A stretch of DNA of 64,000 bases from contig CAZAQA010000008.1 of assembly GCA_964487375.1 (NCBI GenBank), positions 61,402 through 125,401 on the forward strand, read 5' to 3'. The notes below the pieces were generated by a model, which was not told the origin of the DNA, made no database searches, and saw nothing but the letters and a program-made list of their open reading frames with translations. The stretch comes from an uncultured Anaerolineae bacterium. Its GTDB lineage: Bacteria > Chloroflexota > Anaerolineae > JAADDB01. Position numbers and translations under genes: made by a program. Below, piece by piece: positions 11,376 through 64,000 of this stretch (position 1 is its first letter; every line of letters begins with the position of its first letter).

Positions 11376-12624
11376 GTTTTCGCTCCTCTACCAAAACCTT
11401 GCGATAGACGGCCATCGTCCGGGCGACCATCTTCTCCCGCGAGAATTGGGATAATGCCCGCTCACGTCCGGCCTCGCCCATCTTTCGCCGCCGTTCCGGC
11501 TCTCTTGCCAATGCGACAATCGCCTCGGCCAGACCGGCCACATTCCCCGACCGAACCAATATCCCCGTCTGTCCGTCCACGATGATCTCCTCCGCAGCGC
11601 CGGCGCGAAAAGCCACAACTGGCTTGCCCCATCCCATGGCTTCCAGGTAGATCAGCCCAAAAGATTCGAACAGGGAAGGGGCCACAAAAATATCACAGGA
11701 AGCGTAGAGGCGTTCCAATGTTTCTTGAGAAACAAACCCGACAAATGTGGTGGCTTGGAGAGCTCGGGGATCAGCAAAGCTACGGAAATATTCCTGAAAA
11801 CTGCCAAAGTTCTCCGGAGCCATGCCTGTCTCACGTCCCACTATCAAGAATCGAACATTTGCTTCTGCCCTCAGAACCCGGGGAATGGCTTGCAGGAGGA
11901 ACTGAATACCTTTACGCGGTTCTAAGCGGCCGACAAAGAGAACCGTAACCAAGGATCCCGACCTCTCAGAAGGACGGGGAGTCTTCCCAGAGGGCATCCG
12001 CATCCCGTGTGGAACTACCGAAATCTTATGGGGGGAAATCCCCACGTTGTTCGTAAAGTACTCGGCTATATAATTGCTGTTGGCGATCACGTATGCCGCG
12101 TGGCGTACCGGCCAGTTCTCCAAAAAAGAGTGGAGACGAAATCCTACTCGCCGCGTGTTGACACCACTCATCTGGCCAACCACTGCCATGGGAGTGGAGA
12201 GACGGACGACAAGCGGCGCGCGAGGAAATAGACTGTAAACGAGCCCTTCGGCGCCCCAGTTTGGCATCTCGACGATGTCGAACGGACCGGACGCGTTTTC
12301 GATGCGACGGATAGCCCGATAGACCGCCAGACTGCGTTCCAGCAGGTGCCAGATCCCTCGTCCCTTGCGGCGGAGCGGCGCGGGCAACGGGAACCTGGCA
12401 GGCCAGATGCGGTGCACCATGACCGGACCGTCCCGGCGCTCGCCGCTATCACCCGCCGTCGCCTCGGCGATGACGTGAACAGTCTGCCCCGTCTCGGCCA
12501 GGCCATGAGCGAGTTCGTACACATATCTGGCGATGCCTCCGCTGCCTACCGGAGGATAAGCCCGGCTTACCAGGCAAATCTTTAGAGGCCTTCCTGCGCC
12601 GGTTTCCTCTTCGCTCTGCACCAT
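11368..12624 (-). CDS. Glycosyltransferase family 4
   Basis: KICLVSRAYPPVGSGGIARYV and ESFGLIYLEAMGWGKPVVA motifs. Start at the ATG 12624 with an AAGGAGGGG RBS; the ORF-track start 12696 lacks an RBS. Confidence 0.8.
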   Translation of the reverse strand: MVQSEEETGAGRPLKICLVSRAYPPVGSGGIARYVYELAHGLAETGQTVHVIAEATAGDSGERRDGPVMVHRIWPARFPLPAPLRRKGRGIWHLLERSLAVYRAIRRIENASGPFDIVEMPNWGAEGLVYSLFPRAPLVVRLSTPMAVVGQMSGVNTRRVGFRLHSFLENWPVRHAAYVIANSNYIAEYFTNNVGISPHKISVVPHGMRMPSGKTPRPSERSGSLVTVLFVGRLEPRKGIQFLLQAIPRVLRAEANVRFLIVGRETGMAPENFGSFQEYFRSFADPRALQATTFVGFVSQETLERLYASCDIFVAPSLFESFGLIYLEAMGWGKPVVAFRAGAAEEIIVDGQTGILVRSGNVAGLAEAIVALAREPERRRKMGEAGRERALSQFSREKMVARTMAVYRKVLVEERKHG

Positions 12625-12637
12625 ACCCCTCCTTGAC

Positions 12638-29542: not shown

Positions 29543-30031
29543 TCACCAGCCGAACAATTTCAGCCGGATCCGTGTCCAGAGGGAAGATTCCTTTCCAGGA
29601 CGCTGCAAGGAGAAGGACCATCCTTCCTCTCCTGGACCCTCCCGAATGTAAGCACGGATTCGGGCAACCTCCTCCGCATGTCCTCTGATGAGATCCAACC
29701 GCGGACGGGGAAACCAGTACGGGCAGCCGACGCACCAGGAGAGATCTCGGGGCAGGCGTTCCGGGGGAGCCAGCCGGTAAAAGTAGCGACAGGCAAAGTA
29801 AGCTGGCGGGTGAGGCGGATCGTCGATGAAACGAATGGGGCGCAGATACAAGCAGGCGCGCGGGTGACGAAGAGCCTCTGGGATGGGGCAGGCCCCACAC
29901 ACGCGCTCCAGGGCGGATGTCTCCTCCCCAACCCGGGCCAGAAAGGTGTCCCCGGCCACTGTACACACGAACTCTTCTCCCTGACCGTCTTTTGCTGGTC
30001 GACGCTGGCGGAACTCACATTCCGGTATCAT
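29543..30031 (-). CDS. Small Cys-rich hypothetical protein (third gene of an uncharacterised operon)
   Basis: 162 aa from ATG 30031 (MIPECEFRQ...), which overlaps the stop of the upstream gene (ATGA); 8 Cys including CGAC and CVGC pairs. An alternative frame (29560-30018) is also open, so the call is tentative. Confidence 0.4.
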   Translation of the reverse strand: MIPECEFRQRRPAKDGQGEEFVCTVAGDTFLARVGEETSALERVCGACPIPEALRHPRACLYLRPIRFIDDPPHPPAYFACRYFYRLAPPERLPRDLSWCVGCPYWFPRPRLDLIRGHAEEVARIRAYIREGPGEEGWSFSLQRPGKESSLWTRIRLKLFGW

Positions 30032-30822
30032 GGCTCCTCTCGCCTTTCTCCCGCGTAGAACGCCACCGCACGCACCCAGGAACGGGCTTCCTCCGACAAG
30101 TGAGGTTCCTCTCGGTGTTGCCATCCATGCTTACGGATGTACTGACTCAGGTGATCTCGCTGATCCAGAATTCGTCGACGCGCGTCCTGGGCCAGGAGCA
30201 AGGCCACGTTCGCATCCCGCTCCTCGGCCAGGAGAAGCGCACGGCGTAAATGAGGCAGACAGAGGCCATCAGAACTCTCGTACAAGGAGCGGAAAGAGGC
30301 CTCGGGATATCGTTTGATCAGCCAGATGAGGTGCGTGGTCTCCTGCTCCTGCCCGATCGCACAGGCCCGGCAGACGCCACGCGGGGCCAATCCGAACGGG
30401 AGATCCCCGGCTCGGCTGCCGGCGAAGAGTCGGAGCCAGACGTTGCGCAGGCGCCACCACCAACGAGGGGCTTGCCGCGCCTTGTGGCGCTGCATCTCGA
30501 TATAGGCGTCGATCCCGTCCAGGGTGTGCCGGAGCAAGTCCTCGTACAGGATGCCCACGCCTAAACCGTCTTCCCAGATTTGGGCCTCCAACCGCTGCAC
30601 GTACCAGGCGTGGGTGGGGCAAAACCCCAGCGCGGGGACGATGTGTCGCCGCGTGGCTCCGTCGTTGACATGTTCTCGCAACAACGAGAGCAAATAGCGG
30701 TGTTCGGCCTGATAGCGTAACCGACAGAGGGGACAACCCGGTTCCCGGAAAGCTACCTTCAGATCCAATGTGATGAGATCGCCATGTCCTGGCATCATCT
30801 GCTTCCTAAACGGCCTGGGCAA
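30028..30822 (-). CDS. Hypothetical protein with CxxC...CxxH...CxxC...CxxH motifs (putative Zn/redox site)
   Basis: 264 aa; GCPLCR, GFCPTHAW, GVCRACAIG, GLCLPHL; 17-nt overlap with the upstream gene and ATGA overlap with the downstream gene. Confidence 0.5.
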   Translation of the reverse strand: MPRPFRKQMMPGHGDLITLDLKVAFREPGCPLCRLRYQAEHRYLLSLLREHVNDGATRRHIVPALGFCPTHAWYVQRLEAQIWEDGLGVGILYEDLLRHTLDGIDAYIEMQRHKARQAPRWWWRLRNVWLRLFAGSRAGDLPFGLAPRGVCRACAIGQEQETTHLIWLIKRYPEASFRSLYESSDGLCLPHLRRALLLAEERDANVALLLAQDARRRILDQRDHLSQYIRKHGWQHREEPHLSEEARSWVRAVAFYAGERREEP

Positions 30823-32263
30823 TCATGCATCGCCGCGTTCGCTCGGCCAGGCTATAAAAGGCACGAATGGCCCCATGGGGAAAGCTGAAGCGCACGCCCT
30901 TCCCGCGCGTGTGGGGAAGGCGTACTTCGAGATAGGCGTTGAGGATGGAGTCCTGGAACACCAGGGTTCCCACATCTTTCAAAGCCCATTTTCTCGGCGA
31001 GGAGACGGACGCGGCCTGAGGATCCGGGATCTGCCACAGGGTCGACGGGGTGACGAGGAGCAGATGGGCCACAGCGGAGGGATGGGCCCAGGCCGGGAGC
31101 AAGGCCCACGTCTGCACCGGCTCGGAGAGATGGTCCTCAAGCCACTGCGAAAACCGGTCCTGCAGCGCAGTCACCTGCGCCGGATCGTTCGTGGCCGGGT
31201 CGACCAAAGGGGGCAAGGGGTCGAGGGGAGGCGGCACGTGGGCGCGGCGCAGGATGTAGCCGTTGCCGGCCCCGGGGAGGAACGATCTTAAGTGGACAAG
31301 AAGCTCCTCCAGGGCGGCATGTTGGGCTGCAGGGAACTCCCACACCACTTCCTCATCCCCCCGGGCCGTCCGCCAACGAGTGCGCAGGAGGAGCACATCG
31401 CCACTCAGCTCGTCCACACGGACATCGTTCAATCGCTCCAGGACCCCCATGTGAGACGTAAAACCGTAACGCACCCCGGCGCTGTCGGGTGGGACGAGTT
31501 CGGTCAGGTGCAGCAAACGCTGGTCCGTAAGAATGAGCACGCCTTCGTAAATGATCGGCCGTCGCCAGAAGGTCCCTTGCAGATGGCTGCGCAAGCGGGG
31601 ACGCCAAAGTGCGATGAGGATGCGCTCGTCCGGGGCTAAATGAGAGGCCACGTACCCTTGGAAACGCCGCGGAAGCCGGAAGAAGGTGTATTCGGCCTCC
31701 GTGTAATGTTCCACCCGGGCAAAGGCCAGTCGGCCCCGGTAGGGTGCGGGAGGACGCCAGAGGGGAGACGCTTCGTCTGTTGCCCGGGCATTCAGGGCCA
31801 GGCGATAGGCGCGCTGCGCCTCTTGAATCTGCGGCCACACCTGATCTCGCTCCAGCCAGGCATGCACATCCACGGCCGCGAAGACCTGCAACCCGGCCAT
31901 CACCTGCTGCCGCTGTTCCGCATCCAGGTCGGGGATGTCGGACAAGGAGGCACAGGTGGGATCGGCATCGGCAACCGCCACAAGTACCGGAGGCCGACCT
32001 TCCATGCCGTTGTGGATCCCGCCGATGATGCGGGCGAACAGCCGAGTTCCCGGCGGATGAGAAGCGGTGCCCAGGAGGAGAACGGGCAAAGGGGTATTCT
32101 CGACCGTCAGGGTGCGCAGTACAATGGCGTGGTCGACCGAAACCCGCCGATCGGGCATATGAATTTCTTGCAGGTGAAGACGTTCGTCCTCGGGATCAGG
32201 ACGGTACACTCCAACCGGTCGTCCCGGGCGCACGATCTCTATCTGCACGATACCCCGACTCAT
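30806..32263 (-). CDS. Hypothetical protein with a degenerate family-I inorganic-pyrophosphatase-like N-terminal domain
   Basis: 485 aa from ATG 32263. Residues ~5-130 (IVQIEIV...ENTPLPVLLLGTASHPPGTRLFARIIGGIHNGMEGRPPVLVAVADADP) parallel the PPase core (VVIEIP...DGDPLDVLV...[29 protein letters not shown]), but most metal-binding Asp residues are replaced. The remainder is unassigned. Confidence 0.5.
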   Translation of the reverse strand: MSRGIVQIEIVRPGRPVGVYRPDPEDERLHLQEIHMPDRRVSVDHAIVLRTLTVENTPLPVLLLGTASHPPGTRLFARIIGGIHNGMEGRPPVLVAVADADPTCASLSDIPDLDAEQRQQVMAGLQVFAAVDVHAWLERDQVWPQIQEAQRAYRLALNARATDEASPLWRPPAPYRGRLAFARVEHYTEAEYTFFRLPRRFQGYVASHLAPDERILIALWRPRLRSHLQGTFWRRPIIYEGVLILTDQRLLHLTELVPPDSAGVRYGFTSHMGVLERLNDVRVDELSGDVLLLRTRWRTARGDEEVVWEFPAAQHAALEELLVHLRSFLPGAGNGYILRRAHVPPPLDPLPPLVDPATNDPAQVTALQDRFSQWLEDHLSEPVQTWALLPAWAHPSAVAHLLLVTPSTLWQIPDPQAASVSSPRKWALKDVGTLVFQDSILNAYLEVRLPHTRGKGVRFSFPHGAIRAFYSLAERTRRCMIAQAV

Positions 32264-32863
32264 GGAATCTTCCTCGCGAACGTTTCTGCCTTGAAGCGCG
32301 TGTCTGCCCCCAAATCCGGCAAACAAAAAGCCTCTACCGAGCCAGGTCGGTAGAGGCCATCAGTCCCCACGGACACTTCCGGCGAGCCTCATCGCCATCG
32401 CAGGGAGTATACCATCAATTTGCCCCACCGCGCAACCCCATCAAGCGCGCAGGCAACCAGCCCCACGTCGCCAGTAACAGGTCCTGTCCTGGCATGAGGG
32501 CCGCCTTGCGGTGGCTCTGGCAGAATCATGCCTCCCCCGGGAAGTGCCTGAGCGTGACCATCGAACGAGAATTCCCGGAACGCGACGAGGCCGCCTCCGT
32601 GTTCCCGGAAACGGCCTCGTGCTCCCCACGCACCCACTGCCTGTAGCTCTATTATATACTCGATCCTGTTGCTTTTTTCTGTAAGCTTCCTTACATTACA
32701 GACTTACTGAATCGGGTTTTGGTCCGAAACGTCGCCAGCAGATCCCGGGGCCCGCTCCGAAGATCGAACCTGTGGATCATGATGCGGGGGTTCGCCCAAA
32801 CGGCCGGAGCAAGGTATACTTGAGCAAGAATCACCATCCGAAATGTCACCGGAGGAGAGCGCC

Positions 32864-44622: not shown

Positions 44623-45205
44623 GGATAAACTCTAACGTATCCTCGTTCAGAGGTCAAAAAGGACATTCACTTCCCCCAATTTTACTCTCACTCCCCCTGG
44701 GCAGCAAGGAGCAAGACGGTACAAGAGACCACATTCGATTGCCGGTGTCCGGTCCGGATAGTGATAGGATCGCCCCCCTCCCTCGGGGCTTTTGCCTATG
44801 GCCCTGAGGGGGTGAGGGATGAGGGCTTGAACCTCATCCTCTTCCCTTCGCGACAAGACGGCCCCCCACACGCCCAGCGCCCCGTGGATTTTAGCATGGA
44901 GAAGCCCTAGTACCTGGTCAATCATGGAGTGATGGATAAGCCATGGACTTTCCTGAGCCAGGATCTCCAAGAACGGGGAGGCGAAAGCACTGCCTTCGTC
45001 CACCTCTGGCCGTACAGGCAAATGAATTCGGCAGCCCTGACCCTGTAGCGGGTCGCTTTTACTATCAGGAGACTTTTGACCGAGTCCTCGTTTCTGATCT
45101 GCCTCATTGGACAATCGGTTGCTCTCGGACTATAATGTAGGGCGTGGGGTAAATCTCCACGGACAACCTATTCGGGTGTCACTACCTTCAAAGGGGAGGG
45201 TTATC

Positions 45206-46471
45206 ATGAGTGACAAAGTAGTCGTGCAGGAATTGAATCCTTTCGCCATTGCACAAAGGCAGTTCGACGAAGCTGCCGATTTCCTCAAGCTGGACCGGGC
45301 CACACGTGAATTGCTCCGATGGCCCATGCGAGAGTTCCACTTCCAGATCCCCGTACGGATGGATGACGGATCGGTTCGTGTCTTCAAAGGATTCCGGGTC
45401 CAGTACAACGACGCCCGTGGACCGGCCAAGGGGGGCATCCGTTTCCATCCTAAAGAGACGATCGATACCGTACGAGCACTGGCCGCGTGGATGACCTGGA
45501 AGACAGCCGTTTTGGATCTGCCCTTGGGAGGCGGCAAAGGCGGCGTCATTTGTAATCCCAAGGAGCTGTCCGAGAAGGAGTTGGAGCGCTTGAGCCGGGG
45601 CTACATCCGCCAGGTCGCCCGCTTCATCGGGGCCAACGTGGATGTGCCTGCACCGGACGTGTACACCAACCCGCAGATTATGGCCTGGATGATGGACGAA
45701 TACGACACCATCGTGGGCCACAGTGAGCCCGGGGTGATCACCGGCAAGCCGGTGGAACTTGGAGGTTCGAAAGGACGCAACGATGCCACAGCACGAGGAG
45801 GCATTTACGCGGTCCGTGAGGCCGCGAAAGTCCTGGGGCTGGAGCTGAAGGGACAGCCTGTGGCCATTCAGGGGTACGGCAATGCCGGCTCCTATGCCCA
45901 CAAGCTGGCCGTGGAAATCCTGGGCATGAAAGTCGTTGCCGTCTCCGATTCTAAGGGCGGCATCTACGACCCGGATGGGCTCGACTACGAGCAGGTATTC
46001 GAGCACAAGATGCGCACCGGGTCGGTAGTGAATTTCCCCGACACCACACCCATCTCCAACGGGGAATTGCTGGAGCTGCCGGTCATGGTTCTTTTCCCGG
46101 CCGCGTTGGAGGATGTGATCACGCAGGAGAACGCGGGGCGCATCAAAGCCAAGATCGTCGCCGAGCTGGCCAACGGGCCGACGACGCCGGACGCCGACGT
46201 CATCCTGCACAAGAACGGCGTGTTCGTTATCCCCGACTTCCTCTGCAATGCCGGTGGGGTCACAGTGTCCTACTTCGAGCAAGTTCAGGATGCCATGAAC
46301 TATTACTGGACAGAGGAGGAAGTCTACCGTCGCCTGGACGAGAAGATGACCCGGGCCTTCCACGACGTGTATAACAAACTGGAGGAGACGGGCGTTCATC
46401 CTCGCCTGGCAGCCTATCTGGTTGCCGTTGACCGAGTCGCCAAGGCAACTCGGTTACGTGGCTGGGTGTGA
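45206..46471 (+). CDS. gdhA: Glu/Leu/Phe/Val dehydrogenase (glutamate dehydrogenase)
   Basis: KGGIRFHP (GGxK catalytic Lys region), GYGNAGSY Rossmann motif; start at ATG 45206 with an AAGGGGAGGG RBS. The ORF-track start 45107 is unsupported. Confidence 0.9.
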
Positions 46472-48761: not shown

Positions 48762-49002
48762 GGAAATCGTCAGGTTAGCGTCAAGCATCCTGTCCGCCTT
48801 CTGCGTAGGATAGAGGTGAAGCACCTTCTTCTCCTCCTTTCTGATAGGGGGCACTGGCAAGGGCGGGCCAGTGCCCCCGGTCGATCTGCGGCCTTTCCCA
48901 TCCTACCGACGCCCGCGAAAAAATAGCCTTTCCCCTGACTCTGCTGTATCATGCCTACGTTTTCCATCTATCTTGAAATGTGCGCGTTATGAGGAGGTTG
49001 TC

Positions 49003-50262
49003 ATGGCTTCAGAGGAGAAGCGTCGGAGCGCCTACGAGGTCGCCAAAGCCCAGTTTCACGCGGCAGCTCAGTACTTGAATCTCCCCGAGGATATTCAGGA
49101 ATTCCTGTTGACCCCCAAACGAGAACTCATTGTCCACTTCCCCGTCATCATGGACGATGGCAAGCTGCGTATGTTCACCGGCTATCGGGTCCACCACAGC
49201 ACCGTCAAGGGGCCCACCAAAGGGGGGATCCGCTACCATCCCAGTGTGACCCTGGACGAAGTGCGGGCCCTGGCCATGTGGATGACCTGGAAGTGTGCCC
49301 TGATGGATCTCCCTTACGGCGGGGCCAAAGGAGGGGTTGCCGTCGACCCCTACAGCCTCTCCGAAGGGGAACTCAAACGGCTGACCCGACGCTATACGTC
49401 CGAGATTAGCATCCTCATTGGACCGGAACGAGATATCCCTGCACCCGACGTGGGCACAAATCCCAAAATCATGGGCTGGATGATGGACACCTATTCCATC
49501 CACCAGGGCTACGCGGTGCCCGCGGTCGTGACCGGCAAGCCTATCCCTGTGGGAGGGTCCAAGGGCCGTGTGGATGCCACCGGCCTGGGCGTCATGTACA
49601 CAACCCGGGAGACACTCCACCGCAAGGGTATTCACATGCATGATGTCACCGTCGCCGTCCAGGGCTTCGGCAACGTGGGATCTGTCGCTGCCATGGCCAT
49701 GCACCGTGAAGGAGCAAAGATCGTAGCAGTGAGCGACGTGAACGGCGGTATCTACAACCCCAACGGGCTCGACCCGTTCGACCTCAAACGCCATGTGGAG
49801 AACACAGGCACCGTGGTCAGTTATCCCCTGGCCGACCCCATCACCAACCGGGAATTGCTGACCCTGGATGTAGACGTCCTGGTGCCGGCCGCGCTGGAAG
49901 GGGTTATCGATGGCGATCTGGCCCAGGAGGTCAAAGCACGCTTCATCGCCGAAGGGGCCAACGGCCCTCTGACCGTCGACGCGGACCGGATCTTGCTGGA
50001 CAAGGGGACGACCATTATCCCCGACATTCTCTGCAATGCCGGCGGTGTGGTGGTCTCTTACTTCGAATGGGTCCAGGACTTGCAATCCTTTTTCTGGACC
50101 GAGGACGAAATTCGGCGTCAGCTCAAGCGTATTATGCTGACGAACTTCGACGCGGTGTGGAACCAGGCCATCGGAAAGGGCATCGACCTGCGGACCGCGG
50201 CCTACACGCTGGCCATCAGCCGGGTGGCCGAAGCCCTGGAAGCTCGCGGGGTCTACCCCTAA
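49003..50262 (+). CDS. Glu/Leu/Phe/Val dehydrogenase (second glutamate dehydrogenase paralog)
   Basis: [15 protein letters not shown] motifs; start at ATG 49003 with a GAGGAGG RBS; ~50% identical to the 45206 copy. Confidence 0.9.
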
Positions 50263-55926: not shown

Positions 55927-56703
55927 CTATCGATCCAAGAATTGAGCAAAGGCATTCCGCCCCGCTCGGTTTCCTTGTTCGTCCGCTTCTCGCACTGCCT
56001 CCTGCTGCACCCGCAAAAGCTCTTGAATCCCCTTCCAAGCCAGATCGAGCAAGGTGTTCAACGTGTCGCGGGAGAAGGGCTCTCCCTCCGCAGTGCCCTG
56101 GACTTCGACAAAGTCCCCCACCGCGTTCATGACGATGTTCATATCCACTGCGGCGCGCACATCTTCCTCGTAAGCCAGGTCCAGCATAGGAACGCCATCG
56201 ACGACCCCCACGCTGACCGCAGCCACCGCGGGCTTGAAGACGCGCGCGGACACATCACCGGCCTCCACCAGGCGACGCAAGGCCAGGGCCAGGGCCACAT
56301 ATCCCCCGGTGATGGCGGCCGTCCGTGTTCCGCCGTCGGCCTGGAGCACATCCGCGTCGATGATGATCTGGCGTTCGCCCAGGGCTTCCAGGTCGACGGA
56401 GGCGCGCAGGGCCCGCCCGATGAGCCGCTGGATCTCCTGCGTGCGCCCCCGAGCGCCCCTCCGTTCCCGGGACGTACGGATCGGCGTGCTGCGAGGGAGC
56501 AACGCATACTCCGCGGTGACCCATCCCTTCCCGTGACCTTGCAACCAGGGAGGCACTCGCTCCTCCACCGTAGCCGTACAGAGCACAACCGTGTTTCCGG
56601 CGCGGATCAGGACGGAGCCCTCCGCGTGCATGGTGGCCCCCGTCTCTATCACCACAGGCCGCAACCGGTCTGCTCGACGGCCATCCCCTCGCGTGTGAGT
56701 CAT
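55927..56703 (-). CDS. rph: Ribonuclease PH
   Basis: 258 aa: [13 protein letters not shown]...[16 protein letters not shown]...RTSRERRG...[17 protein letters not shown]...VAAVSVGVV, a classic RNase PH. Only this part of the 647-aa ORF-track entry is real. Confidence 0.9.
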
Positions 56704-56753
56704 GATTCTGCACTCTCGACTGCACGTATTTTTATGATCACCATGATAAAAAT

Positions 56754-56782
56754 TTGCACCCTCCCAGGAATACAGATATAAT
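56754..56782 (+). promoter_or_regulatory. Sigma70-like promoter upstream of the radical SAM array
   Basis: TTGCAC -17 nt- TATAAT, ~78 nt upstream of the first radical SAM ATG (56860), in an AT-rich spacer. Confidence 0.5.
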
Positions 56783-56859
56783 AGCCTCGCTTGCAGAAGG
56801 TGACAAAGAATAGTCGACGCGCTTGTGTTTTCAACACACACACTTGAGGAAGGAGAACG

Positions 56860-58356
56860 ATGCGGGTTCTGCTGATCAACCCCAAATTTCGGTTGCCCAT
56901 CGACACACGGACGACGCCTCACCTGGGCCTGGCGTACCTGGGTGCAGTCTCGGAGGAAGCGGGCTACGAGGTTCGCATTTTCGACGCCGACATCGAGGAT
57001 CAACCTCTGGGGGACTTCATCCGTGAATTCCGCCCCCACGTGGTCGGTATCACGGCCAACACGCCCCAGGTGATGCAGGCCTGGCGCACGGCCGAGCGCA
57101 TCAAGGCCGTGCACGATGTGCCCATCGTCCTCGGTGGCCCCCATGTCAGTGTCCTGCCCGAGGAGTCCGTGGCTCGGCCCGAGGTGGACATGGTGGTCCG
57201 CGGGGAGGGCGAGGAAACCTGGTTGCACATCTGTCGCACTGTCGAATCCTACCTGAAGGACCAGCCGACATTCAGCACAGAAGCGTTGATGAACCCGGCC
57301 CTGGGCTTGTGGAAGGATGTGCAGGGCATCACCTACCAGACCAGCGACGGCAAAGTGCACTCCAACCCGGACCGACCGGCCATTCGGGACTTGGACAGCC
57401 TTCCCTGGCCGGCCTATCACCTCTTTAAGATGGAGAAGTATACCAATCTGCAGCCGGCGATGGACAAGGTGGATGGTTCCCGCTCTTTCTCTATCATGAC
57501 CAGTCGCGGCTGTCCTTATCGTTGCACGTTCTGCTCCCAGTCTATCATGCCGATTCGCTGGCGGGCGCGCTCGCCGGAGAACGTGCTGGAGGAGTGGCGG
57601 CATCTGGTCGTGGACCTGGGCGCGGAGGAAATCGGCGTGTTGGACGATTCGGCCAACATCCGCATGGACCGGTTGATGACGCTGGCCGACTTGCTGATCG
57701 AAAACCGATTGAACCACGTCCCCTGGATCTTCGTCAACGGCATTCGCGCCAACCTGGCCATGAAGGAACTGTTGCGCAAGTTGAAAGAGGCCGGGCTCAA
57801 GCGTACCGCCTTCGGTGTGGAAACCGGAGACCCTGAACTTCTCCTCTCGGTGGACAAGCGAGTGGACCACGATACCATTCGACGGGCGTTCAAGAATGCC
57901 AAGGAGGTGGGGCTAGAGACCATCGGCTTCTTCATCATCGGCCTGCCGGGGGACACCCGAGAGAGCATGCAGAAGACCATCGATTTCGCCATTGAGTTGG
58001 ACCCGCTCATCGCCAACTTCAGCATGATGACGCCGTACCCGGGGACGATTGTGTACGAGATTGTGAAACGACAGGGACGATTGCTGGTGCAGAACTGGGA
58101 GGATTACGTGTTCTTCGACAATCGGGCCCGCTTCGAGATGGGAGACCTGACCGCGGAGTTGATGGAGGAGATGTTCCGCAAGGCGTACCGCCAGTTCTAC
58201 TGGCGGCCCAAGTACATCCTGCGAGCCATCCGGCGACCTGACTTCTGGCTGAACTTCGGCCGTAATCTGCGCATCGCCTATCGTACGGTGTTCCCACGCA
58301 AGGAGAAGACGGAACTGCGCCGTCAGATCGAGGCGGAGGCCCTTTCCGCCTCTTGA
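56860..58356 (+). CDS. B12-binding domain-containing radical SAM protein (copy 1)
   Basis: N-terminal cobalamin-binding Rossmann region (RVLLINPKF...[20 protein letters not shown]) and radical SAM CxxxCxxC ([11 protein letters not shown]); GAAGGAG RBS. Confidence 0.85.
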
Positions 58357-58425
58357 ACGCATATCCTGAATCAGGCCATGTTCGTCTAGTTTGTACCGGG
58401 ACCATATCGAGACAAGGAGCCAACC

Positions 58426-59898
58426 ATGCGCATATCGTTCATTGAGCCCAAGTGGAACCAGTTGGTCAACAGCTACCCATCGCTGGGATTGGGCTACCTG
58501 GCCGCGGTCGCGGAACAGGAAGGCCATGAGTGCCGCATCCACGATTTTGGCCTGCGCCCTCAGGTGCCCGTCGAGGAGGACGTGAAATCAGTGCTGGACT
58601 TCAAGCCGGACCTGGTGGCCTTCACTTCCATGACCACGTCGTACTACAGTGTGGAAAAGGCCGCGCAGATTATCAAAGAGGAACTTGGGGTCCCCATTAT
58701 TATTGGTGGCCCCCACGCCACGACCCTGCCGGAGGAGACCCTAAAGAATCCGAACATCAATTTCCTCATTTTTGGCGAGGGAGAGGTCGCCTGGCGCAAT
58801 TTCATCCAAGCCCTCGCCGCGGGAGACGACCGTTGGGACATGATCGCCGGGCTCTGGTATAAGACGGAAGACGGCACGATTGTGAGCGGGGGCAACGCGC
58901 CCCTGGTGAAGAACCTGGATGAGCTTCCTTTCCCGGCCCGACACCTGTTTGACCTGGAGGCATATCCCCTGTACGCGCCTAACGGGGAACGGATGATCAC
59001 TCTCATGTCCAGCCGGGGATGCCCGTATAACTGTTCGTTCTGCTTCAAGGGCATTGTAGGGCGCACCTACCGCCAGCGCAGCCCGGCGAATATCGTGGCC
59101 GAAATTCGCCAGATCATGGAATCGTATGGTACCCGCAATTTCTACTTCATCGATGACCTGTTCACCATCAACGTAAAACGGTTGGAGAAAATCCTCGATT
59201 ACATGATCGAAAGCGGGCTGGACATTCGTTTTCGCTGCCTGGCCCGGGTGGATCGGGTCACCCCGGAGCTGTTGAAGAAGATGTACAAGGCCGGATGTCG
59301 CCAAATTCACTACGGCATCGAGTCGGGCAACGAGGAGGTGCTGAAGCGCACGGCCAAGCACATCAACCTGGAGCAGGTGCGCCAGGCCGTGCAGTGGACG
59401 GAAGAAGCGGGCATTGCCAGCAAGGGGTATTTCATCCTCGGCCTGCCGGGAGACAACGAGCAGACCATCCAGGAGACCATCGAGTTCGCGGCCAGCCTGC
59501 CACTGACCGAGGCCATGTTCTCCATTGCCACGCCTTTCCCGGGCACCAAGCTGTGGCAAGAGCTCATCCGGCGACGACCGGAGTTGAAGTACAACGCGGA
59601 CTTCACCAAGGCCTACTATTATAACTCTTACACCTCAGAGATCGCCCCCTTTATGAACGTGTCGGATGTGTCGGACGAGGAGCTGAGCACACTGGCCATC
59701 AAGGCCCGGCAGCGTTTCCTGGAAGCCAAAGCGCGACGCACGTACCACAAGGCCTTTGGGCCCACCCTGGGCGAGGTCTTCTGGAAAGTCAGTCGCAACG
59801 AGGCTGTTCGATCCATGGGCCGTGGCCTGATGAACCTGGGCATGTTCAAGCGCTTCAAATATTACAAGACGGTTGGGGAGGCTGAATTGTGGTCGTAA
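58426..59898 (+). CDS. B12-binding domain-containing radical SAM protein (copy 2)
   Basis: MRISFIEPKW...[20 protein letters not shown] and SRGCPYNCSFC; AAGGAG RBS. Confidence 0.85.
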   Translation: MRISFIEPKWNQLVNSYPSLGLGYLAAVAEQEGHECRIHDFGLRPQVPVEEDVKSVLDFKPDLVAFTSMTTSYYSVEKAAQIIKEELGVPIIIGGPHATTLPEETLKNPNINFLIFGEGEVAWRNFIQALAAGDDRWDMIAGLWYKTEDGTIVSGGNAPLVKNLDELPFPARHLFDLEAYPLYAPNGERMITLMSSRGCPYNCSFCFKGIVGRTYRQRSPANIVAEIRQIMESYGTRNFYFIDDLFTINVKRLEKILDYMIESGLDIRFRCLARVDRVTPELLKKMYKAGCRQIHYGIESGNEEVLKRTAKHINLEQVRQAVQWTEEAGIASKGYFILGLPGDNEQTIQETIEFAASLPLTEAMFSIATPFPGTKLWQELIRRRPELKYNADFTKAYYYNSYTSEIAPFMNVSDVSDEELSTLAIKARQRFLEAKARRTYHKAFGPTLGEVFWKVSRNEAVRSMGRGLMNLGMFKRFKYYKTVGEAELWS

Positions 59899-61049
59899 AT
59901 GGAAACGGCAAGAAGCCGAAATCCACGCTGACGTTCGAACAGAAGTTACAACGAAAGTTCCGCTATTACCGACGCAAGGCCCTGCAGCCGGTACGCTGGC
60001 TGACGTACGAAAGCGGCCAGACACGCCTGGTGCCCCCCCCGGACCGGATGTACATCGAATCGACGAACATTTGCAACCTGAATTGCATTATGTGCCCCAC
60101 GGGCCTGAAGCAGATCACCCGGCCCCACGGGTTCATGGACTTTGAGGTGTTCAAGCAAATTGTGGACGAGATGGCGCCCTGGGTGAGTGCAACCACGTTG
60201 CACATCTGGGGCGAACCGTTGATGCACAAGCGCATTTTCGACATGGTGGCCTACTGCCGCCAAAAGGGGCTGCGGGCGGAAATCAGCACCAACGCTACGT
60301 TGCTGACGGAGGAGAAATCACGACGGCTACTGGACGCGGGTCTGGACGCGATTTACCTCTCCATCGATGGCCTGCGCCCGGAGACGTACGAGAACATTCG
60401 CGTCAGAGCGGATTTCGAGCGCACAAACACAAATATCCGCCGCTTCATCGAGCTGAAGGTGCAAGGGGACTATCACACCTACGTCAACATCCAGATCATC
60501 AAGATGAAGCAAACCCTGGACGAGATCCAGGAGTTCGTGCAGGTCTGGAGTCTGCCGGGAGTCGACCGCATCAACGTCAAGCCCTTCGACTCCTGGGCCG
60601 ACCAGATCGAGGAAATCTCGGAGTTGCGTCCGAACGAGGTGAAGCTGCCCCCTAGGCGCTGGGCCTGTCCCAACCTCTGGTATCACGTGCACATTTACTG
60701 GGATGGCTCCATTGCCATGTGCGACCGGGATTTCAACCTGGAATTCCCCCTGGGCAATGTCATCGACGAGGACGGCAAGGTCCGGGTCATGAAGAACTGG
60801 AACGGTCCGCAGATGCAGGAACTGCGGCGCCGCCATCTGGAGAACGACATGGCCGATGTGTCGCCCTGCAATTCCTGCACCGAATGGGCCTGGTGGAAGC
60901 CGGCACCCTTCTTCTCCCAGGGCAACCGCCCCGTGGAAGAGGGGAGCGCCCAGCGGCGGTTGAACACGTCGCCCAACGGCTCAGGGCCTATCGTCATCGG
61001 GCTGGATGAAATCGGGATGGTGGACGGGACGCAGGGAAGCAGTCAGTAG
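59889..61049 (+). CDS. Radical SAM protein with C-terminal SPASM/twitch-like Cys cluster
   Basis: CNLNCIMC (CxxxCxxC) and a C-terminal Cys-rich region (CPNLW...MCDRD...PCNSCTEW). The in-frame start is either GTG 59889 (10-nt overlap with the upstream gene) or ATG 60048. Confidence 0.75.
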   Translation: MVVNGNGKKPKSTLTFEQKLQRKFRYYRRKALQPVRWLTYESGQTRLVPPPDRMYIESTNICNLNCIMCPTGLKQITRPHGFMDFEVFKQIVDEMAPWVSATTLHIWGEPLMHKRIFDMVAYCRQKGLRAEISTNATLLTEEKSRRLLDAGLDAIYLSIDGLRPETYENIRVRADFERTNTNIRRFIELKVQGDYHTYVNIQIIKMKQTLDEIQEFVQVWSLPGVDRINVKPFDSWADQIEEISELRPNEVKLPPRRWACPNLWYHVHIYWDGSIAMCDRDFNLEFPLGNVIDEDGKVRVMKNWNGPQMQELRRRHLENDMADVSPCNSCTEWAWWKPAPFFSQGNRPVEEGSAQRRLNTSPNGSGPIVIGLDEIGMVDGTQGSSQ

Positions 61050-61099
61050 GAAACGAGACCAGCAAATGAGGACCACGTCTAGAGCCGAGGAGGAAGGCG

Positions 61100-62551
61100 A
61101 TGAAGACGACATTACTGTACGCGGGGATTGCCGGATACGGCTTCAACTCCTTGAGCCGCGGCATGGAAGCGGGATGGATTTCCCATGGGTTGGCCTCTAT
61201 CAGTGCGGCCGCCAAGGCGGAGGGATTCGAGATTGATTTAATCGACTTGCGAGCGCTGCAGGGCTGGGACCACTTTCGCGAGGAATTCAAGAAGCGAGAC
61301 CCGGATGTGGTCGGCGTGACGATGATGTCCGTGGACTACAATCCGGTCAAGCGCGCCTTGGCGATCATGAAGGAGGTCAAGCCGGAGGTGGTGATCGTCC
61401 TGGGCGGTGCCCATGTGACTTTGGCCCTGGACGACGCCCTGCGCATGCCCAACGTGGACTATCTGATCCTGCACGAGGGCGAAATCACCTTTCCCCGGCT
61501 CCTGCACGCGCTCAAGGATGGACGCCCACCGCGCCAGAAGGTCCTGCGGGGCATCACGCCCGACCTGGACAAGATCCCTTTCTCCGACCGCGATTTGTTC
61601 CTGCACGAATGGCGCAAGTGGGGCTACACCCTGGACAGCCCGGAGGTGCCCTTTGTCAAGGAGCTGCCGCCTCCTTTTGTGACGATCATCGCCGGGCGCG
61701 GGTGTGCGTACAAGTGCTCCTTCTGCAAGCCGGGTGAGGACTTGATTTTCGGCAAGCGGGTGCGTCGACGCTCGGTAGAGAATGTCATCGAAGAGCTGAA
61801 GATGCTGCGGGACAAGTACCATTTCGCCTCTTTCATGTTCCACGATGACTGCATCACCGAGGACCGGGAGTGGGTGATCGAGTTCTCCCGGCGCTACAAG
61901 GAGGAGGGATTCACTCAGCCCTTCTTCTGCCAGTCGCGCGCCGACATCATCACCCGTCACGAGGACATGGTGGCGCTGATGGCCGATGCCGGGTTGGCCG
62001 GGTACTTCATCGGCTTCGAGTCGGGCAACCAGCGGGTGCTCAACTTCCTGCGCAAGGGGACCACGGTCGAGCGCAACATCCGGGCCGCGAAGACGTGCAA
62101 GAAATACGGGCTGGCCATTTGGGCCAACTACATGATGGGCATTCCCACCGAGACCAGGGAAGAGGTCATGGACACGGTGCGGATGATCCGGGAGATCGAC
62201 CCGGACTACTTCAGCCCCTCCTTTTTCACGCCCCATCCGGGCACGGACCTGTACGATTACGTCATGGAGCACAACCTGAGCCTGATCACCGACTACGACC
62301 AGTATCGGCGCAACCCAACCGAACCCAAGATCAAGGGGCAGGACTATGAGTTCCTGAAGTGGGCGCGCGATTTCAGCCAGAAGCGCAAGTTCAAGAACCG
62401 CTTGCGCCGCGGGTTCCGGGCCTTCCGGGACAAGTGGCTGGACCCGCGTCGGTACATACGTAAGCTGCGCCGCATGTTGGGGCTTGACCGACCCGACACG
62501 CCCAGCCGTCCGCCGCAAACGGGCCAGCCTCATTGGCAGGTGACGGGATAG
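61100..62551 (+). CDS. B12-binding domain-containing radical SAM protein (copy 3)
   Basis: LGLASISAAAKAEGFEIDLIDL B12-like N-terminus and GRGCAYKCSFC; GAGGAAGG RBS. Confidence 0.85.
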   Translation: MKTTLLYAGIAGYGFNSLSRGMEAGWISHGLASISAAAKAEGFEIDLIDLRALQGWDHFREEFKKRDPDVVGVTMMSVDYNPVKRALAIMKEVKPEVVIVLGGAHVTLALDDALRMPNVDYLILHEGEITFPRLLHALKDGRPPRQKVLRGITPDLDKIPFSDRDLFLHEWRKWGYTLDSPEVPFVKELPPPFVTIIAGRGCAYKCSFCKPGEDLIFGKRVRRRSVENVIEELKMLRDKYHFASFMFHDDCITEDREWVIEFSRRYKEEGFTQPFFCQSRADIITRHEDMVALMADAGLAGYFIGFESGNQRVLNFLRKGTTVERNIRAAKTCKKYGLAIWANYMMGIPTETREEVMDTVRMIREIDPDYFSPSFFTPHPGTDLYDYVMEHNLSLITDYDQYRRNPTEPKIKGQDYEFLKWARDFSQKRKFKNRLRRGFRAFRDKWLDPRRYIRKLRRMLGLDRPDTPSRPPQTGQPHWQVTG

Positions 62552-62574
62552 GATGTCATTCTCGGATCGAGCCG

Positions 62575-62898
62575 ATGAGCACAACATTCGAAAGAATACA
62601 ACACTTGGTAGCAAACGGAGATGTCCTGATTTCGCGTCACGGATATAACGAATTAGCACAGGATGGGATTTCCGTTCAGGAGGTGGTTGAGGGACTTTAT
62701 GAGGCTATCTTGGTGGAGGACTACCCTGAGTATTACAAGGGGCCGTGCGTGTTAGTCCTCCAATACGATAAGAAAGGTTGTCCCATTCACGTCGTATGGG
62801 GAATACCTCGGGGCAAAGATTCTCCCGCTGTTCTCGTAACAGCGTACAGACCGGATCCTGAAAAGTGGGATAAGACGTTTCGGAGACGAAAGAAATGA
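62575..62898 (+). CDS. DUF4258-family toxin-like protein
   Basis: 107 aa from ATG 62575: ...ISRHGYNELAQDGISVQEV...HVVWGIP...VLVTAYRPD matches the DUF4258 profile from memory; noticeably AT-richer than its flanks. Confidence 0.6.
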   Translation: MSTTFERIQHLVANGDVLISRHGYNELAQDGISVQEVVEGLYEAILVEDYPEYYKGPCVLVLQYDKKGCPIHVVWGIPRGKDSPAVLVTAYRPDPEKWDKTFRRRKK

Positions 62899-63113
62899 AG
62901 AAGGTCAGACGTCAGAAGGAATTTGTGCACGTCGGTGACTATGTGGCAGAAGTCGACATTGGCGTTATTTACACAGATGATGAATGGTCTCCTTATATTT
63001 CCTTGGAGGATGCGCGACGGTTGGATGAAGTGCGAGAAGCCTTAAGAGCAGGAGACCTGAAAAGGGCTGCTACAATGGCGCGAGTTTATAAGCTCGTTCC
63101 TGTGGCCGCGTAA
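62895..63113 (+). CDS. Small partner protein of the DUF4258 gene (putative antitoxin)
   Basis: 72 aa; ATGA overlap with the DUF4258 stop; no motif recognised. Confidence 0.45.
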   Translation: MKKVRRQKEFVHVGDYVAEVDIGVIYTDDEWSPYISLEDARRLDEVREALRAGDLKRAATMARVYKLVPVAA

Positions 63114-63177
63114 CTCGGAGTGCTTATATTCGGAGCGATTGGAAATCGTGAATCTCTTTCCGTGGGGAATCCTATAA

Positions 63178-64000
63178 ATGCGCGTTTTGTTAGCCAGTCC
63201 AGAAAGTAAGGTCTGGAGTTCGAGGAAACATATTCCGTTGGGCCTGGGCTACCTGGCCGCGGTGCTGCGCGAGGCCGGCCACGAGCCCATGATCTACGAC
63301 GCCGCGGTGGAGGATGTGCCCATCACCTATTACCTCGACCGGGCCGAGGAAGAAGGACGCCCCTACCGCATGGTGGGCATCACCGCCACCACGCCCCTCA
63401 TCGAGGAGGCGTGGGACATGGCCCTGGAGGTGAAGAAGCGTTACGGCGTTTACACCATCCTCGGCGGCCCCCACCTGACCATCATGCCGATGGAAACCAT
63501 GGAACAAAAGCCGTGGGTGGATTTTGTCTTTCGCGGGGAAGCGGAGCACGGCCTTGTGGAGCTTGTAGACGCACTGGAATCAGGGCGTGACTACGGGGGC
63601 ATCCCGGGACTTTTCTTCCGCCATGGCGAGGACATCATTCCCTCCTCGGAATCGCCCATGATCGAGGATTTGGACGCGCTCCCCTTTCCCGCACACGACC
63701 TGTTCAAAATCGAACGCTACACCAACCTCCAGCCCTTGACCGACGGGCTGGACCCACACGCGCGTTCTTACACTATTCTCACCAGTCGCGGTTGCCCCTT
63801 CCAATGCACCTTCTGCTCCAAGCCCGTCACCGGAGACACGTGGCGGGGGCGGTCGGTGGAGAACGTCATCGCCGAGTGGCGCTGGCTGGTGCGCGACCTG
63901 GGCGCGACGGAAATCGGCATTACCGACGACATCTGGAACTTGAAACTGGACCGGGCTAAGGCCATCTGTAAGCGATTGATCGAGGAGGACCTGAATGCCG
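63178..64000 (+). CDS. B12-binding domain-containing radical SAM protein (copy 4), 3'-truncated by the window end
   Basis: ATG at 63178; [13 protein letters not shown]...[20 protein letters not shown], then [12 protein letters not shown]; the frame stays open to position 64000. Confidence 0.8.

Follow-up and report, generated by a model that had tools for sequence, protein, structure and literature searches.

Architecture of the Radical SAM Array

The 3′ end of the window (the whole 64,000 nt stretch of DNA that was analysed) carries five radical SAM genes, all in the same orientation on the plus strand. Four of them, rS1 (56860–58356, 498 aa), rS2 (58426–59898, 490 aa), rS3 (61100–62551, 483 aa) and rS4 (from 63178 to beyond 64000), are paralogues that encode class-B-type radical SAM proteins with a B12-binding domain. 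The fifth, a SPASM/twitch-type radical SAM gene (59889–61049, 386 aa, GTG start), lies between rS2 and rS3, and its start overlaps the rS2 stop by 10 nt. Gaps between the array genes are just 50–70 nt, and we infer that the five genes are co-transcribed as an operon-like cassette. An earlier note on this DNA had described the same genes at this place, and Pfam matches and CxxxCxxC motifs bear this out. It had also described an array of at least five genes that runs past the window and a cluster that continues beyond 64000. Indeed rS4 crosses this position, and a longer copy of the contig holds the complete gene (482 aa, stop at window-equivalent position 64626). The array, however, ends with the rS4 stop, about 630 bp beyond the window, and from there to the contig end only interspersed repeats and toxin-antitoxin genes follow, the latter as a DUF433/DUF5615 and a DUF4160/DUF2442 pair.

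rS3 and rS4 are separated by two plus-strand genes that the earlier note does not mention, a DUF4258 toxin-like gene (62575–62898, 107 aa, PF14076, 66 bits) and a 72-aa ORF (62895–63113) that overlaps the DUF4258 stop by 4 nt. The DUF4258 gene is probably an insertion that stands outside the pathway; in the close relatives L009 and L011 no such gene lies between rS3 and rS4. The 72-aa ORF had no match in Pfam or NCBIfam and is presumed, from its position alone, to be the antitoxin partner.

Upstream, the array adjoins rph (RNase PH, 55927–56703), as the earlier note had stated, but rph is on the minus strand and diverges from the array. A sigma-70-like site (TTTGCA-18 nt-TATAAT, 10/12 consensus matches) is present on the plus strand at 56753–56782, about 78 nt 5′ of rS1, in line with the promoter-like site noted before. 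By consensus match alone it is a candidate promoter of the array. Another candidate, located on the minus strand (56806–56778), faces rph, and the region contains 7 consensus-like promoter sites compared to 2.3 expected from shuffles.

Four B12-Domain Paralogues without a Curated Family

rS1–rS4 match the Pfam B12-binding domain at 62–80 bits (cut-off 32) and also Radical_SAM (79.7 and 93.9 bits, respectively, for rS1). In rS1 an N-terminal B12-binding Rossmann domain is followed by the CxxxCxxC core (C218/C222/C225); each paralogue has one such motif and lacks auxiliary-cluster cysteines. Pairwise identity is 26–41%, with rS4 and rS1 as the nearest pair (41%) and rS3 (pI 9.05) as the most divergent member (26–28% to the others). 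All four proteins have basic, aromatic-rich C-terminal tails (tail pI 10.4–11.6). Their domain content suggests that they use cobalamin, although cobalamin binding is unreadable from sequence, and methylation, dehydration and rearrangement are indistinguishable at this level. Iterative C-methylation by these paralogues is possible. A B12-type domain can also be cobalamin-free, as in AprD4, which binds no cobalamin (PMC12931638).

None of the five array proteins reached a curated-family cut-off (HpnJ, BchE, HpnR, RiPP methylases, ladderane, Tes). HpnJ was the best curated family for rS1 (201 bits) and rS3 (158 bits); the complete paralogues scored 158–201 bits and the truncated rS4 97 bits, against a cut-off of 577. 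Values were 75–113 bits for HpnR (cut-off 650), 145–185 bits for BchE with the complete paralogues, 89–117 bits for the RiPP C-methyltransferase model (cut-off 282) and 190 bits for rS2 with the model of the RiPP enzyme ApyD. The bacteriochlorophyll or hopanoid context and the BchE-like membership that the earlier note had considered were thus not found: no such genes lie near the array, and scores stay below the cut-offs.

The HpnJ matches would fit tailoring of membrane lipids, with hydrocarbon chains or head groups modified as by the archaeal Tes/Gms enzymes (SPASM-type) plus GrsA/GrsB and Gmm (B12-domain type), or as hopanoids are by HpnJ/HpnP/HpnR. A SPASM-type gene together with several B12-domain genes is also precisely what the gms/grs/gmm neighbourhood of Thermococcus shows (PMC13459092), Chloroflexota have been proposed as makers of unassigned branched tetraethers (PMC11868695), and the basic aromatic tails, with the Trp-rich motif of the SPASM-type protein, would suit binding to a membrane surface. 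Nevertheless, we regard lipid tailoring as unlikely. The scores are far below the cut-offs for HpnJ, HpnR, ladderane (360 bits) and Tes (450 bits), no recurrent fatty-acid, isoprenoid or glycerolipid gene was found beside the arrays, and the wider SPASM family occurs in glycan loci instead. A lipid-linked sugar head group would suit a lipid and a sugar substrate alike.

The best solved relative of rS2 by sequence was MgmA (9ccb, 96.7 bits); AprD4 scored 93 bits. MgmA is a protein glutamine C-methyltransferase, and AprD4 acts on an aminoglycoside sugar. An AF2 model of rS2 (pLDDT 78.8) consists of Rossmann, TIM-barrel and C-terminal helical parts. Foldseek returned the cobalamin methylases MgmA and TsrM together with AprD4 as top matches of this model, AprD4 being nearest by TM-score and MgmA by E-value, with MiaB-type enzymes among the more distant matches.

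The SPASM-Type Protein

The SPASM-type protein matches Radical_SAM (76.8 bits) and SPASM (39.9 bits, cut-off 21.5) in Pfam. The SPASM/twitch label given before is supported by this match, but besides the core (C62/C66/C69) the protein has just four invariant cysteines (C260, C278, C327, C330). Their spacing, C-x17-C-x48-C-x2-C, would presumably supply all ligands of one auxiliary cluster, as in the BtrN twitch cluster. The protein also has a conserved N-terminal helix of its own, and its C-terminus carries the Trp-rich motif EWAWWKP. Among solved structures, BlsE (39 bits), DesII and BtrN are nearest to it in sequence, and BlsE, DesII, SuiB and BtrN in fold, with SkfB also among the fold matches. 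In BtrN, DesII and BlsE a 5′-deoxyadenosyl radical abstracts a hydrogen from a sugar carbon, while SuiB is a peptide maturase. With a TM of about 0.5 the fold matches are generic, and SuiB scores nearly as high as the sugar enzymes. Top curated matches were cofactor-type maturases and AhbD/NirJ; the BlsE family model gave 45 bits (cut-off 400) and the Tes model 40.6 bits.

SuiB and SkfB as fold matches, the ApyD score of rS2 and its proximity to MgmA, the nearest solved relative in both sequence and E-value, could indicate C-methylation or cross-linking of a peptide or conserved protein encoded elsewhere; very high conservation would suit a conserved protein substrate. The earlier note had drawn an analogy to proteusin-type RiPPs while seeing no precursor peptide in the window. 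A precursor-like ORF was found neither within or beside the array in the window nor in the following 5.7 kb, and YcaO, LanB, protease and transporter genes are likewise absent. The SPASM-type protein has no RiPP recognition domain, since its CxxxCxxC starts at residue 62 and its N-terminal extension measures only about 50 residues, and no PqqD domain was found. Some related arrays contain a conserved 68-aa ORF, but it is absent here and conserved end to end, unlike precursor cores. As neither a precursor peptide nor a RiPP recognition domain was found, the proteusin-like reading lacks support, and with every score below the RiPP family cut-offs we consider a peptide or protein substrate improbable.

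A Modular Cassette Conserved in Anaerolineae

The distribution of the cassette was followed in 80 retained loci, derived from 157 GTDB species with a relative. The loci are all labelled Chloroflexota, nearly all Anaerolineae, Caldilineales or Ardenticatenales, and each of the 80 holds the cassette. Orthologues of the SPASM-type protein were present in 80/82 related loci (59–82% identity), of rS2 in 74/82 (56–84%), of rS1 in 59/82 (53–88%) and of rS4 in 44/82 (57–90%). rS3 is an optional module, since orthologues were found in only 18/82 loci (72–92% identity). In 72 of 82 loci the rS2 and SPASM genes are direct neighbours, and the median distance between them is −10 nt. The two genes are the universal core of the cassette, their reading frames usually overlapping, and around it the number of radical SAM genes varies from 2 to 8 per locus. 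Protein lengths are constant across the Anaerolineae loci.

These constant lengths and an identity of 60–80% throughout the class are unlike secondary metabolism, and neither scaffold, resistance or export genes nor tetrapyrrole genes are linked to the array. Tailoring of a small molecule, such as a sugar-derived or tetrapyrrole cofactor or secondary metabolite with scaffold genes elsewhere, therefore has a low probability, although the paralogues have BchE among their best matches over the full length, cofactor-type maturases and AhbD/NirJ are the top curated hits of the SPASM-type protein, and AprD4, BtrN, DesII and BlsE all come from antibiotic pathways.

Gene Neighbourhoods

The RNA ligase gene rtcB is the commonest upstream neighbour; in about 30 loci it precedes the array in the same orientation, either directly or with a rhodanese gene in between. 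Together with the genes before it, it forms a block, ArsR-MoaA-IscA-DUF2203-RtcB, that has the look of conserved housekeeping synteny. Together with the promoter region common to the array and rph, the basic tails of rS1–rS4, which could bind nucleic acid, and the MiaB-type fold matches, RtcB could point to a tRNA or rRNA nucleoside that is decorated in several radical steps. This is very improbable: RtcB is not upstream in the window or in the deep-branching loci, its block resembles housekeeping synteny, the context of the wider family is glycan rather than RNA, and we know of no class-B radical SAM enzyme that acts on RNA.

In deep-branching Anaerolineae loci (L006, L082, L084) several PMT_2 GT-C glycosyltransferase genes lie directly 3′ of the rS2-SPASM pair, in L006 alongside genes for an EamA-type small membrane protein and YfhO. 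L074–L078 have a gene for an initiating sugar transferase (Bac_transf) downstream. Only 3 PMT_2, 2 Bac_transf and 2 GT2 genes occurred among 106 sampled downstream neighbours, and in the window, as in most Anaerolineae loci, the array has no glycosyltransferase or sugar-nucleotide gene next to it.

The wider SPASM family comprises 1133 representatives at E<1e-30. Its members are 33–49% identical to the SPASM-type protein and share its cysteine pattern; some are fused to hexapeptide acyltransferase domains. Seven members were sampled regardless of gene context, chosen by the length of their contigs except for the nearest outgroup, which was added. Sugar- or glycan-pathway genes adjoin the family gene in all seven, and glycosyltransferases occur within about 9 kb in six. 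The Kuenenia locus has a sugar epimerase/dehydratase and GT2, while other loci contain a Wzm/Wzt exporter with three GT1 and Acyl_transf_3; PMT, GT4, GT2 and DegT; GT2 and DegT immediately flanking, with a Wzx-type flippase; or four GT4. The nearest outgroup (49% identical) has Wzz/Wzy/Wzx and a PIG-L deacetylase gene that overlaps the family gene, and a weaker locus has an adjoining hexapeptide acyltransferase without glycosyltransferase. B12-binding radical SAM genes, with products 27–34% identical to rS1–rS4, are nearby in 5/7 members.

Proposed Function in Sugar Tailoring

This comparative evidence from related loci and the wider family, which is invisible from the window sequence alone, points to sugar or glycan tailoring. 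Our favoured explanation, held tentatively at somewhat less than an even chance, is an uncharacterised radical SAM cassette that tailors a cell-envelope sugar or glycan in Anaerolineae, a class of filamentous bacteria, and does not serve to make a peptide antibiotic. The glycan-gene context of the wider family and the PMT_2 and Bac_transf genes beside some Anaerolineae arrays support this view. The four invariant post-core cysteines and the relationship to BlsE, DesII and BtrN would be in agreement with it, as would the predicted fold of rS2, nearest by TM-score to an enzyme of aminoglycoside sugars. Against it stand the many arrays, the window included, without adjoining glycosyltransferase or sugar-nucleotide genes, the upstream neighbours RtcB and rph, and the generic matches of the predicted SPASM-type structure, with SuiB nearly as high. 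Function could also have shifted within the wider family, since identity is only 33–49%. That the system is uncharacterised, as claimed before, agrees with our results: no known primary-metabolism pathway accounts for the array, and the literature searched held no characterised member of either protein family.

The substrate would be a sugar unit, linked to a nucleotide or polyprenyl phosphate or already part of an envelope glycan or glycolipid. The SPASM/twitch-type enzyme and rS2 would be made together from their overlapping frames. A 5′-deoxyadenosyl radical formed by the SPASM enzyme would take a hydrogen off a sugar carbon, with its single auxiliary Fe-S cluster handling the electron, and the outcome may be oxidation, epimerisation, deamination or decarboxylation. 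On this sugar scaffold, each of the four B12-domain paralogues would then perform a single radical reaction of its own, most likely the transfer of a methyl group from methylcobalamin to an unactivated carbon, or alternatively an AprD4-like dehydration or HpnJ-like ring rearrangement. As module sets differ among Anaerolineae (2 to 8 genes), the final decoration would differ by lineage.

Comparison with Known Systems

Proteusin clusters likewise hold several B12-domain radical SAM paralogues side by side (the C-methyltransferases PoyB/PoyC), but the array, unlike these clusters with PoyD, has no precursor, leader-recognition domain, epimerase, protease or transporter. MgmA, TsrM, TokK, CysS, OxsB and AprD4 share the three-part architecture of the rS2 model and include its top fold and sequence matches. 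Like the array paralogues, the solved class B enzymes have just one CxxxCxxC cluster and lack cysteines for an auxiliary one; the array proteins are, however, only 17–23% identical to them and below every curated class-B cut-off. BtrN (2-deoxy-scyllo-inosamine dehydrogenase), DesII and BlsE are closest to the SPASM protein in sequence and fold. It differs from them by its low identity (16–19%; TM about 0.5), its own N-terminal helix, its Trp-rich C-terminus and its B12-domain partner. In the hopanoid pathway HpnJ acts after HpnK, a PIG-L-type deacetylase, and in the nearest outgroup locus a PIG-L gene pairs with the SPASM gene. Unlike archaeal GDGT and hopanoid sets, the array has no linked lipid genes and scores below the HpnJ, HpnR and Tes cut-offs, but with the archaeal GDGT set (Tes/Gms with GrsA/GrsB and Gmm) it would share the logic of co-encoded radical SAM enzymes of two classes that each make one modification on a shared scaffold (PMC13459092).

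Organization of the radical SAM gene array

The array at the end of the window is read here, tentatively, as a modular cassette for the radical tailoring of a sugar or glycan of the cell envelope, with rS2 and the SPASM/twitch-type enzyme as its core; this is the best-supported of the interpretations considered. ORFs and Pfam domains confirm the five co-directional radical SAM genes recognized in the earlier note. All are on the plus strand: four genes with a radical SAM and a B12-binding domain (rS1, 56860-58356; rS2, 58426-59898; rS3, 61100-62551; rS4, from 63178 past the window end), and one gene for a radical SAM core with a SPASM domain (59889-61049). The whole rS4 protein has 482 aa, with the stop at window-equivalent position 64626. 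Pairwise identity among rS1-rS4 is 26-41%, with rS1 and rS4 as the closest pair. The gaps measure 69 nt (rS1-rS2), -10 nt (rS2-SPASM gene) and 50 nt (SPASM gene-rS3), and predicted terminators within the array are at chance level. It is therefore plausible that the array forms one transcript. The promoter proposed ahead of the array was found as a candidate site (TTTGCA-18-TATAAT, 56753-56782, plus strand; 10/12 consensus matches), and a second promoter-like site on the opposite strand is oriented toward rph (RNase PH). The array had been described as immediately following rph. This gene is indeed the neighbour, but it lies on the minus strand (55927-56703, seen in the longer contig copy), so that it is divergent from the array and not upstream of it. 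A 647-aa minus-strand ORF (55927-57870) covers rph and continues antisense across rS1; it is genuine only in its rph part, the remainder being a high-G+C shadow ORF.

Between rS3 and rS4 sit a DUF4258 toxin-like gene (62575-62898, plus strand; PF14076, 66 bits) and a 72-aa ORF that overlaps it by 4 nt. With a DUF4258 gene beside a small partner, the pair has the composition of a type II toxin-antitoxin system. Since the 72-aa ORF has no family match, we refer to it as a putative antitoxin. Both genes are missing at this position in the close relatives L009 and L011.

A JGI metagenome contig of 69,685 bp is identical to the window and reaches 5.7 kb further. Downstream of rS4 it holds only DUF433/DUF5615 and DUF4160/DUF2442 toxin-antitoxin pairs and interspersed repeats before the contig ends. 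The array therefore consists of five radical SAM genes, and the continuation beyond 64 kb that had been expected does not exist on this contig. The repeat (locus L001 13532-16563, past the window end) occurs in seven copies, whose core spans about 63 nt within units of 136-212 nt, interleaved with these gene pairs, and has no occurrence within the window.

An Rfam search of the window returned no cobalamin or SAM riboswitch. The sole match was a fluoride riboswitch unrelated to the array (32344-32405, minus strand; RF01734, 34.4 bits, gathering score 34), directly upstream of a 505-aa ORF (30806-32326, minus strand) whose only Pfam match, to an inorganic pyrophosphatase domain at the N-terminus, is marginal (24.2 versus 23.5 bits). 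A DUF6062 gene (30028-30822, minus strand) follows; the two are unusual cargo for a fluoride riboswitch. Two paralogous Glu/Leu/Phe/Val dehydrogenase genes (45107-46471 and 48871-50262, both plus strand) lie 2.4 kb apart.

The B12-domain proteins

All four B12-type proteins matched the B12-binding domain (PF02310) with 61.8-79.7 bits (cut-off 32.1), and the three complete paralogues matched Radical_SAM (PF04055) with 77.6-99.6 bits. In each of rS1-rS4 the CxxxCxxC motif occurs once and no membrane segment is predicted, and the order of a B12-binding Rossmann domain followed by a CxxxCxxC core is that of class B radical SAM enzymes. The predicted structure of rS2 shows both domains in this architecture. 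Its nearest folds include the cobalamin methylases MgmA (PDB entry 9ccb, identified as MgmA from the literature), TsrM, TokK and CysS and, with the top TM-score, the cobalamin-free sugar dehydratase AprD4; AprD4 is also among the top sequence matches. A related domain occurs in AprD4 and ArsL but lacks cobalamin there (PMC12931638), and a sequence test for cobalamin binding yielded no usable motif. With both cobalamin methylases and AprD4 as fold neighbours of the model, methylation by rS2 is predicted to be likely.

None of the five array proteins reached an NCBIfam curated cut-off. For the three complete paralogues rS1-rS3 we obtained 158-201 bits with HpnJ (TIGR03471; cut-off 577.6), 145-185 bits with BchE (TIGR02026; cut-off 481), 103-113 bits with HpnR (TIGR04367; cut-off 650), 105-140 bits with the ladderane-type model TIGR04072 (cut-off 360) and up to 190 bits with ApyD (cut-off 750). 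The truncated rS4 scored lower on every model (HpnJ 97, BchE 115, HpnR 75, TIGR04072 72). Membership in HpnJ, BchE, HpnR and TIGR04072 was rejected, as all scores are under the cut-off. The HMM comparison named beforehand thus gave no BchE-like housekeeping assignment, and no hopanoid or bacteriochlorophyll genes were found in the context. That the array is an uncharacterised biosynthetic system agrees with these results, since no curated family is reached. In JGI annotations, rS2 orthologues are named 'anaerobic magnesium-protoporphyrin IX monomethyl ester cyclase' or 'YgiQ'. With 185 versus 481 bits on the BchE model these automatic names are unsupported, and the annotation of these genes as bacteriochlorophyll cyclases is hereby corrected.

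Tailoring of a lipid by the array is the main rival to the sugar reading. The C-terminal tails of rS1-rS4 are basic and aromatic, which would fit a membrane-bound, lipid-linked substrate, and would also fit RNA. From lipid biosynthesis, the literature searched offered analogies only. For a lipid-linked sugar as substrate the two readings overlap.

The SPASM/twitch-type protein

The SPASM domain (PF13186) was detected at residues 260-331 with 39.9 bits (cut-off 21.5). Among 16 orthologues the only invariant cysteines behind the core are C260, C278, C327 and C330, spaced C-x17-C-x48-C-x2-C, and the seven-cysteine motif for two auxiliary [4Fe-4S] clusters is absent. By their sequence pattern the four cysteines are consistent with one auxiliary cluster, for which they would be enough, in a twitch-like arrangement; the predicted structure has low confidence around them. 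The CxxxCxxC motif starts at residue 62, and the preceding ~50 residues are modelled as a single long basic helix.

Among solved structures, the best matches in sequence are BlsE, DesII and BtrN, and those in fold are BlsE, DesII, SuiB and BtrN (TM 0.47-0.55, rmsd 6-11 Å). With a model pLDDT of 72 and TM values of about 0.5, the likeness in fold is suggestive only. On the BlsE model (TIGR04466) the protein scored 45 bits against a cut-off of 400; with this score and the loose superposition, assignment to the BlsE, BtrN and DesII families was rejected, and the relation is one of resemblance, not membership. A tungsten-cofactor maturase model (113, cut-off 380) and the tetraether synthase Tes (NF045702) gave the best curated matches; Tes was rejected with a score far under the cut-off (40.6 versus 450).

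Peptide substrates

The earlier note had compared the array to proteusin-type RiPP clusters. This analogy failed on family score, precursor and leader recognition: rS1-rS4 reach 89-117 bits on the RiPP C-methyltransferase model TIGR03975 (cut-off 281.85; 93-117 for the complete rS1-rS3), and no precursor candidate was found in the array, its gaps, or the 5.7 kb downstream. Gaps of 50-70 nt leave no space for a precursor. The array proteins contain no RRE or PqqD domain, and there is a ~50-residue N-terminus where RiPP maturases hold the recognition domain. The search for YcaO, LanB or transporter genes revealed none of them, and no PqqD or protease gene. Of the earlier interpretation, the uncharacterised radical SAM system stands, while its RiPP-like and open-ended character does not.

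In related arrays a conserved 68-aa ORF (MSSFSNPHYMYLF...) follows the gene of B12-domain group B3 wherever this ORF is found (for example L023 10752-10958 and L055 18121-18656), and an ORF of ~108 aa with a weak AF2212-like match often comes after it. Neither has a family assignment. The 68-aa ORF was rejected as a RiPP precursor: its conservation extends over the full length, no family matches it, and the window lacks it.

Distribution across Anaerolineae

Orthologues of the SPASM protein with 59-82% identity occur in many metagenomes, and when a single genome was scanned for each GTDB species, 157 species encoded a relative. The retained loci (80/80) are from Chloroflexota: Anaerolineae, Caldilineales, Ardenticatenales, Ca. 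Amarolinea and one labelled Chloroflexia. Genes were called in all loci by a GC3-based choice of ORFs and then grouped by BLAST. An orthologue of the SPASM protein is present in 80/82 loci and one of rS2 in 74/82, followed by rS1 (59/82), rS4 (44/82) and rS3 (18/82). In 72 loci the SPASM gene sits next to rS2, and the median gap is -10 nt. This pair is the minimal, universal core of the array. The rS2 orthologues have a near-constant length (489-490 aa) and 62-95% identity, a degree of sequence conservation typical of a core function, unlike variable secondary metabolism.

Further B12-domain groups (B2, B3, B5, B6, B7) and three further SPASM/twitch-type groups are variably present, and array size ranges from 2 to 8 radical SAM genes. 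Eight proteins of related arrays (five accessory radical SAM groups and two small ORFs), scanned with NCBIfam and Pfam, reached no cut-off, and the additional groups likewise match no curated family. None of the accessory genes of the relatives (S2, p68, p108, RtcB, MoaA, IscA) occurs in the window. In ~30 Anaerolineae loci the gene directly upstream of the array is RtcB (e.g., L004 5479-6990, L005 3927-6929), in ~9 of them with an intein (1000 aa versus about 500), and there is a conserved upstream block ArsR-MoaA-IscA-DUF2203-RtcB.

Genomic context of the wider family

An exhaustive search at E<1e-30 identified 1133 representatives of the wider family of the SPASM protein, about 340 aa long and 33-49% identical to it. 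They share its cysteine pattern and are covered by no curated model; some are fused to hexapeptide-repeat acyltransferase domains. Equivalents of C260, C278, C327 and C330 are likewise invariant, and many members have a second Cys beside the C278 equivalent, which the window protein does not have.

We inspected the context of seven members, six picked for long contigs and one as the nearest outgroup, none for its context. Sugar- or glycan-pathway genes adjoin the family gene in 7/7, and glycosyltransferases are nearby in 6/7. The neighbours are an epimerase/dehydratase and GT2 in the first member; a Wzm/Wzt exporter, three GT1 and an O-acyltransferase in the third; PMT, GT4, GT2 and DegT in the fourth; directly flanking GT2 and DegT with a Wzx flippase in the fifth; and four GT4 in the sixth. 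The second is the weakest case, with an adjoining hexapeptide acyltransferase and no glycosyltransferase. The nearest outgroup (49% identity) lies in a Wzz/Wzy/Wzx locus that also has three methyltransferase genes and a PIG-L deacetylase gene overlapping the family gene. B12-domain radical SAM genes are nearby in five of the seven; they are 27-34% identical to rS1-rS4, which is about the similarity of the window paralogues to one another. In the deepest-branching Anaerolineae loci (L006, L082, L084) the rS2-SPASM pair is directly followed by several PMT_2 GT-C glycosyltransferases, in L006 additionally with a small EamA-type protein and YfhO, and in the loci L074-L078 an initiating sugar transferase is located downstream.

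Several observations count against the glycan reading. Most Anaerolineae arrays, including that of the window, stand alone, and a Pfam census of 106 downstream neighbours showed no dominant family, with glycan enzymes in 7/106. Upstream, the RNA ligase RtcB is the most frequent neighbour, and in the window the neighbour is RNase PH. The window has a polysaccharide locus on the minus strand (6216-14209: GT4, two GT2, two Wzx-type flippases, a class I methyltransferase and another GT4), 43 kb from the array.

Discussion

Beyond the cassette itself, the SPASM/twitch enzymes and their B12 partners may represent an unrecognised class of glycan-tailoring systems in many bacterial and archaeal phyla, expanded in Anaerolineae, a generalization that we regard as rather unlikely. 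The expansion would consist of the stand-alone arrays with up to eight radical SAM genes, which would make a sugar (or cyclitol) of the cell envelope that is multiply C-alkylated or ring-rearranged and would be without known counterpart. If the glycan reading is right, envelope sugars of an entire bacterial class, abundant in wastewater sludge, sediments and hot springs, would arise from undescribed chemistry, and more than 1000 diverged family representatives in polysaccharide loci would gain a working hypothesis. Whatever the substrate, the universal rS2-SPASM pair is a compact, well-defined target for biochemistry.

Our literature searches yielded nothing relevant on this cluster or on radical SAM enzymes in glycan loci, and no description of radical SAM tailoring of cell-surface glycans. 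Radical SAM tailoring is well studied in antibiotics and peptides, to which archaeal and hopanoid lipids have been added more recently, and sets of class B and SPASM radical SAM enzymes are a known kind of system. Orphan radical SAM clusters are numerous; what sets the present array apart is its class-wide conservation, its modularity, and a family context that links it to a kind of substrate with no characterised radical SAM tailoring in the literature searched.
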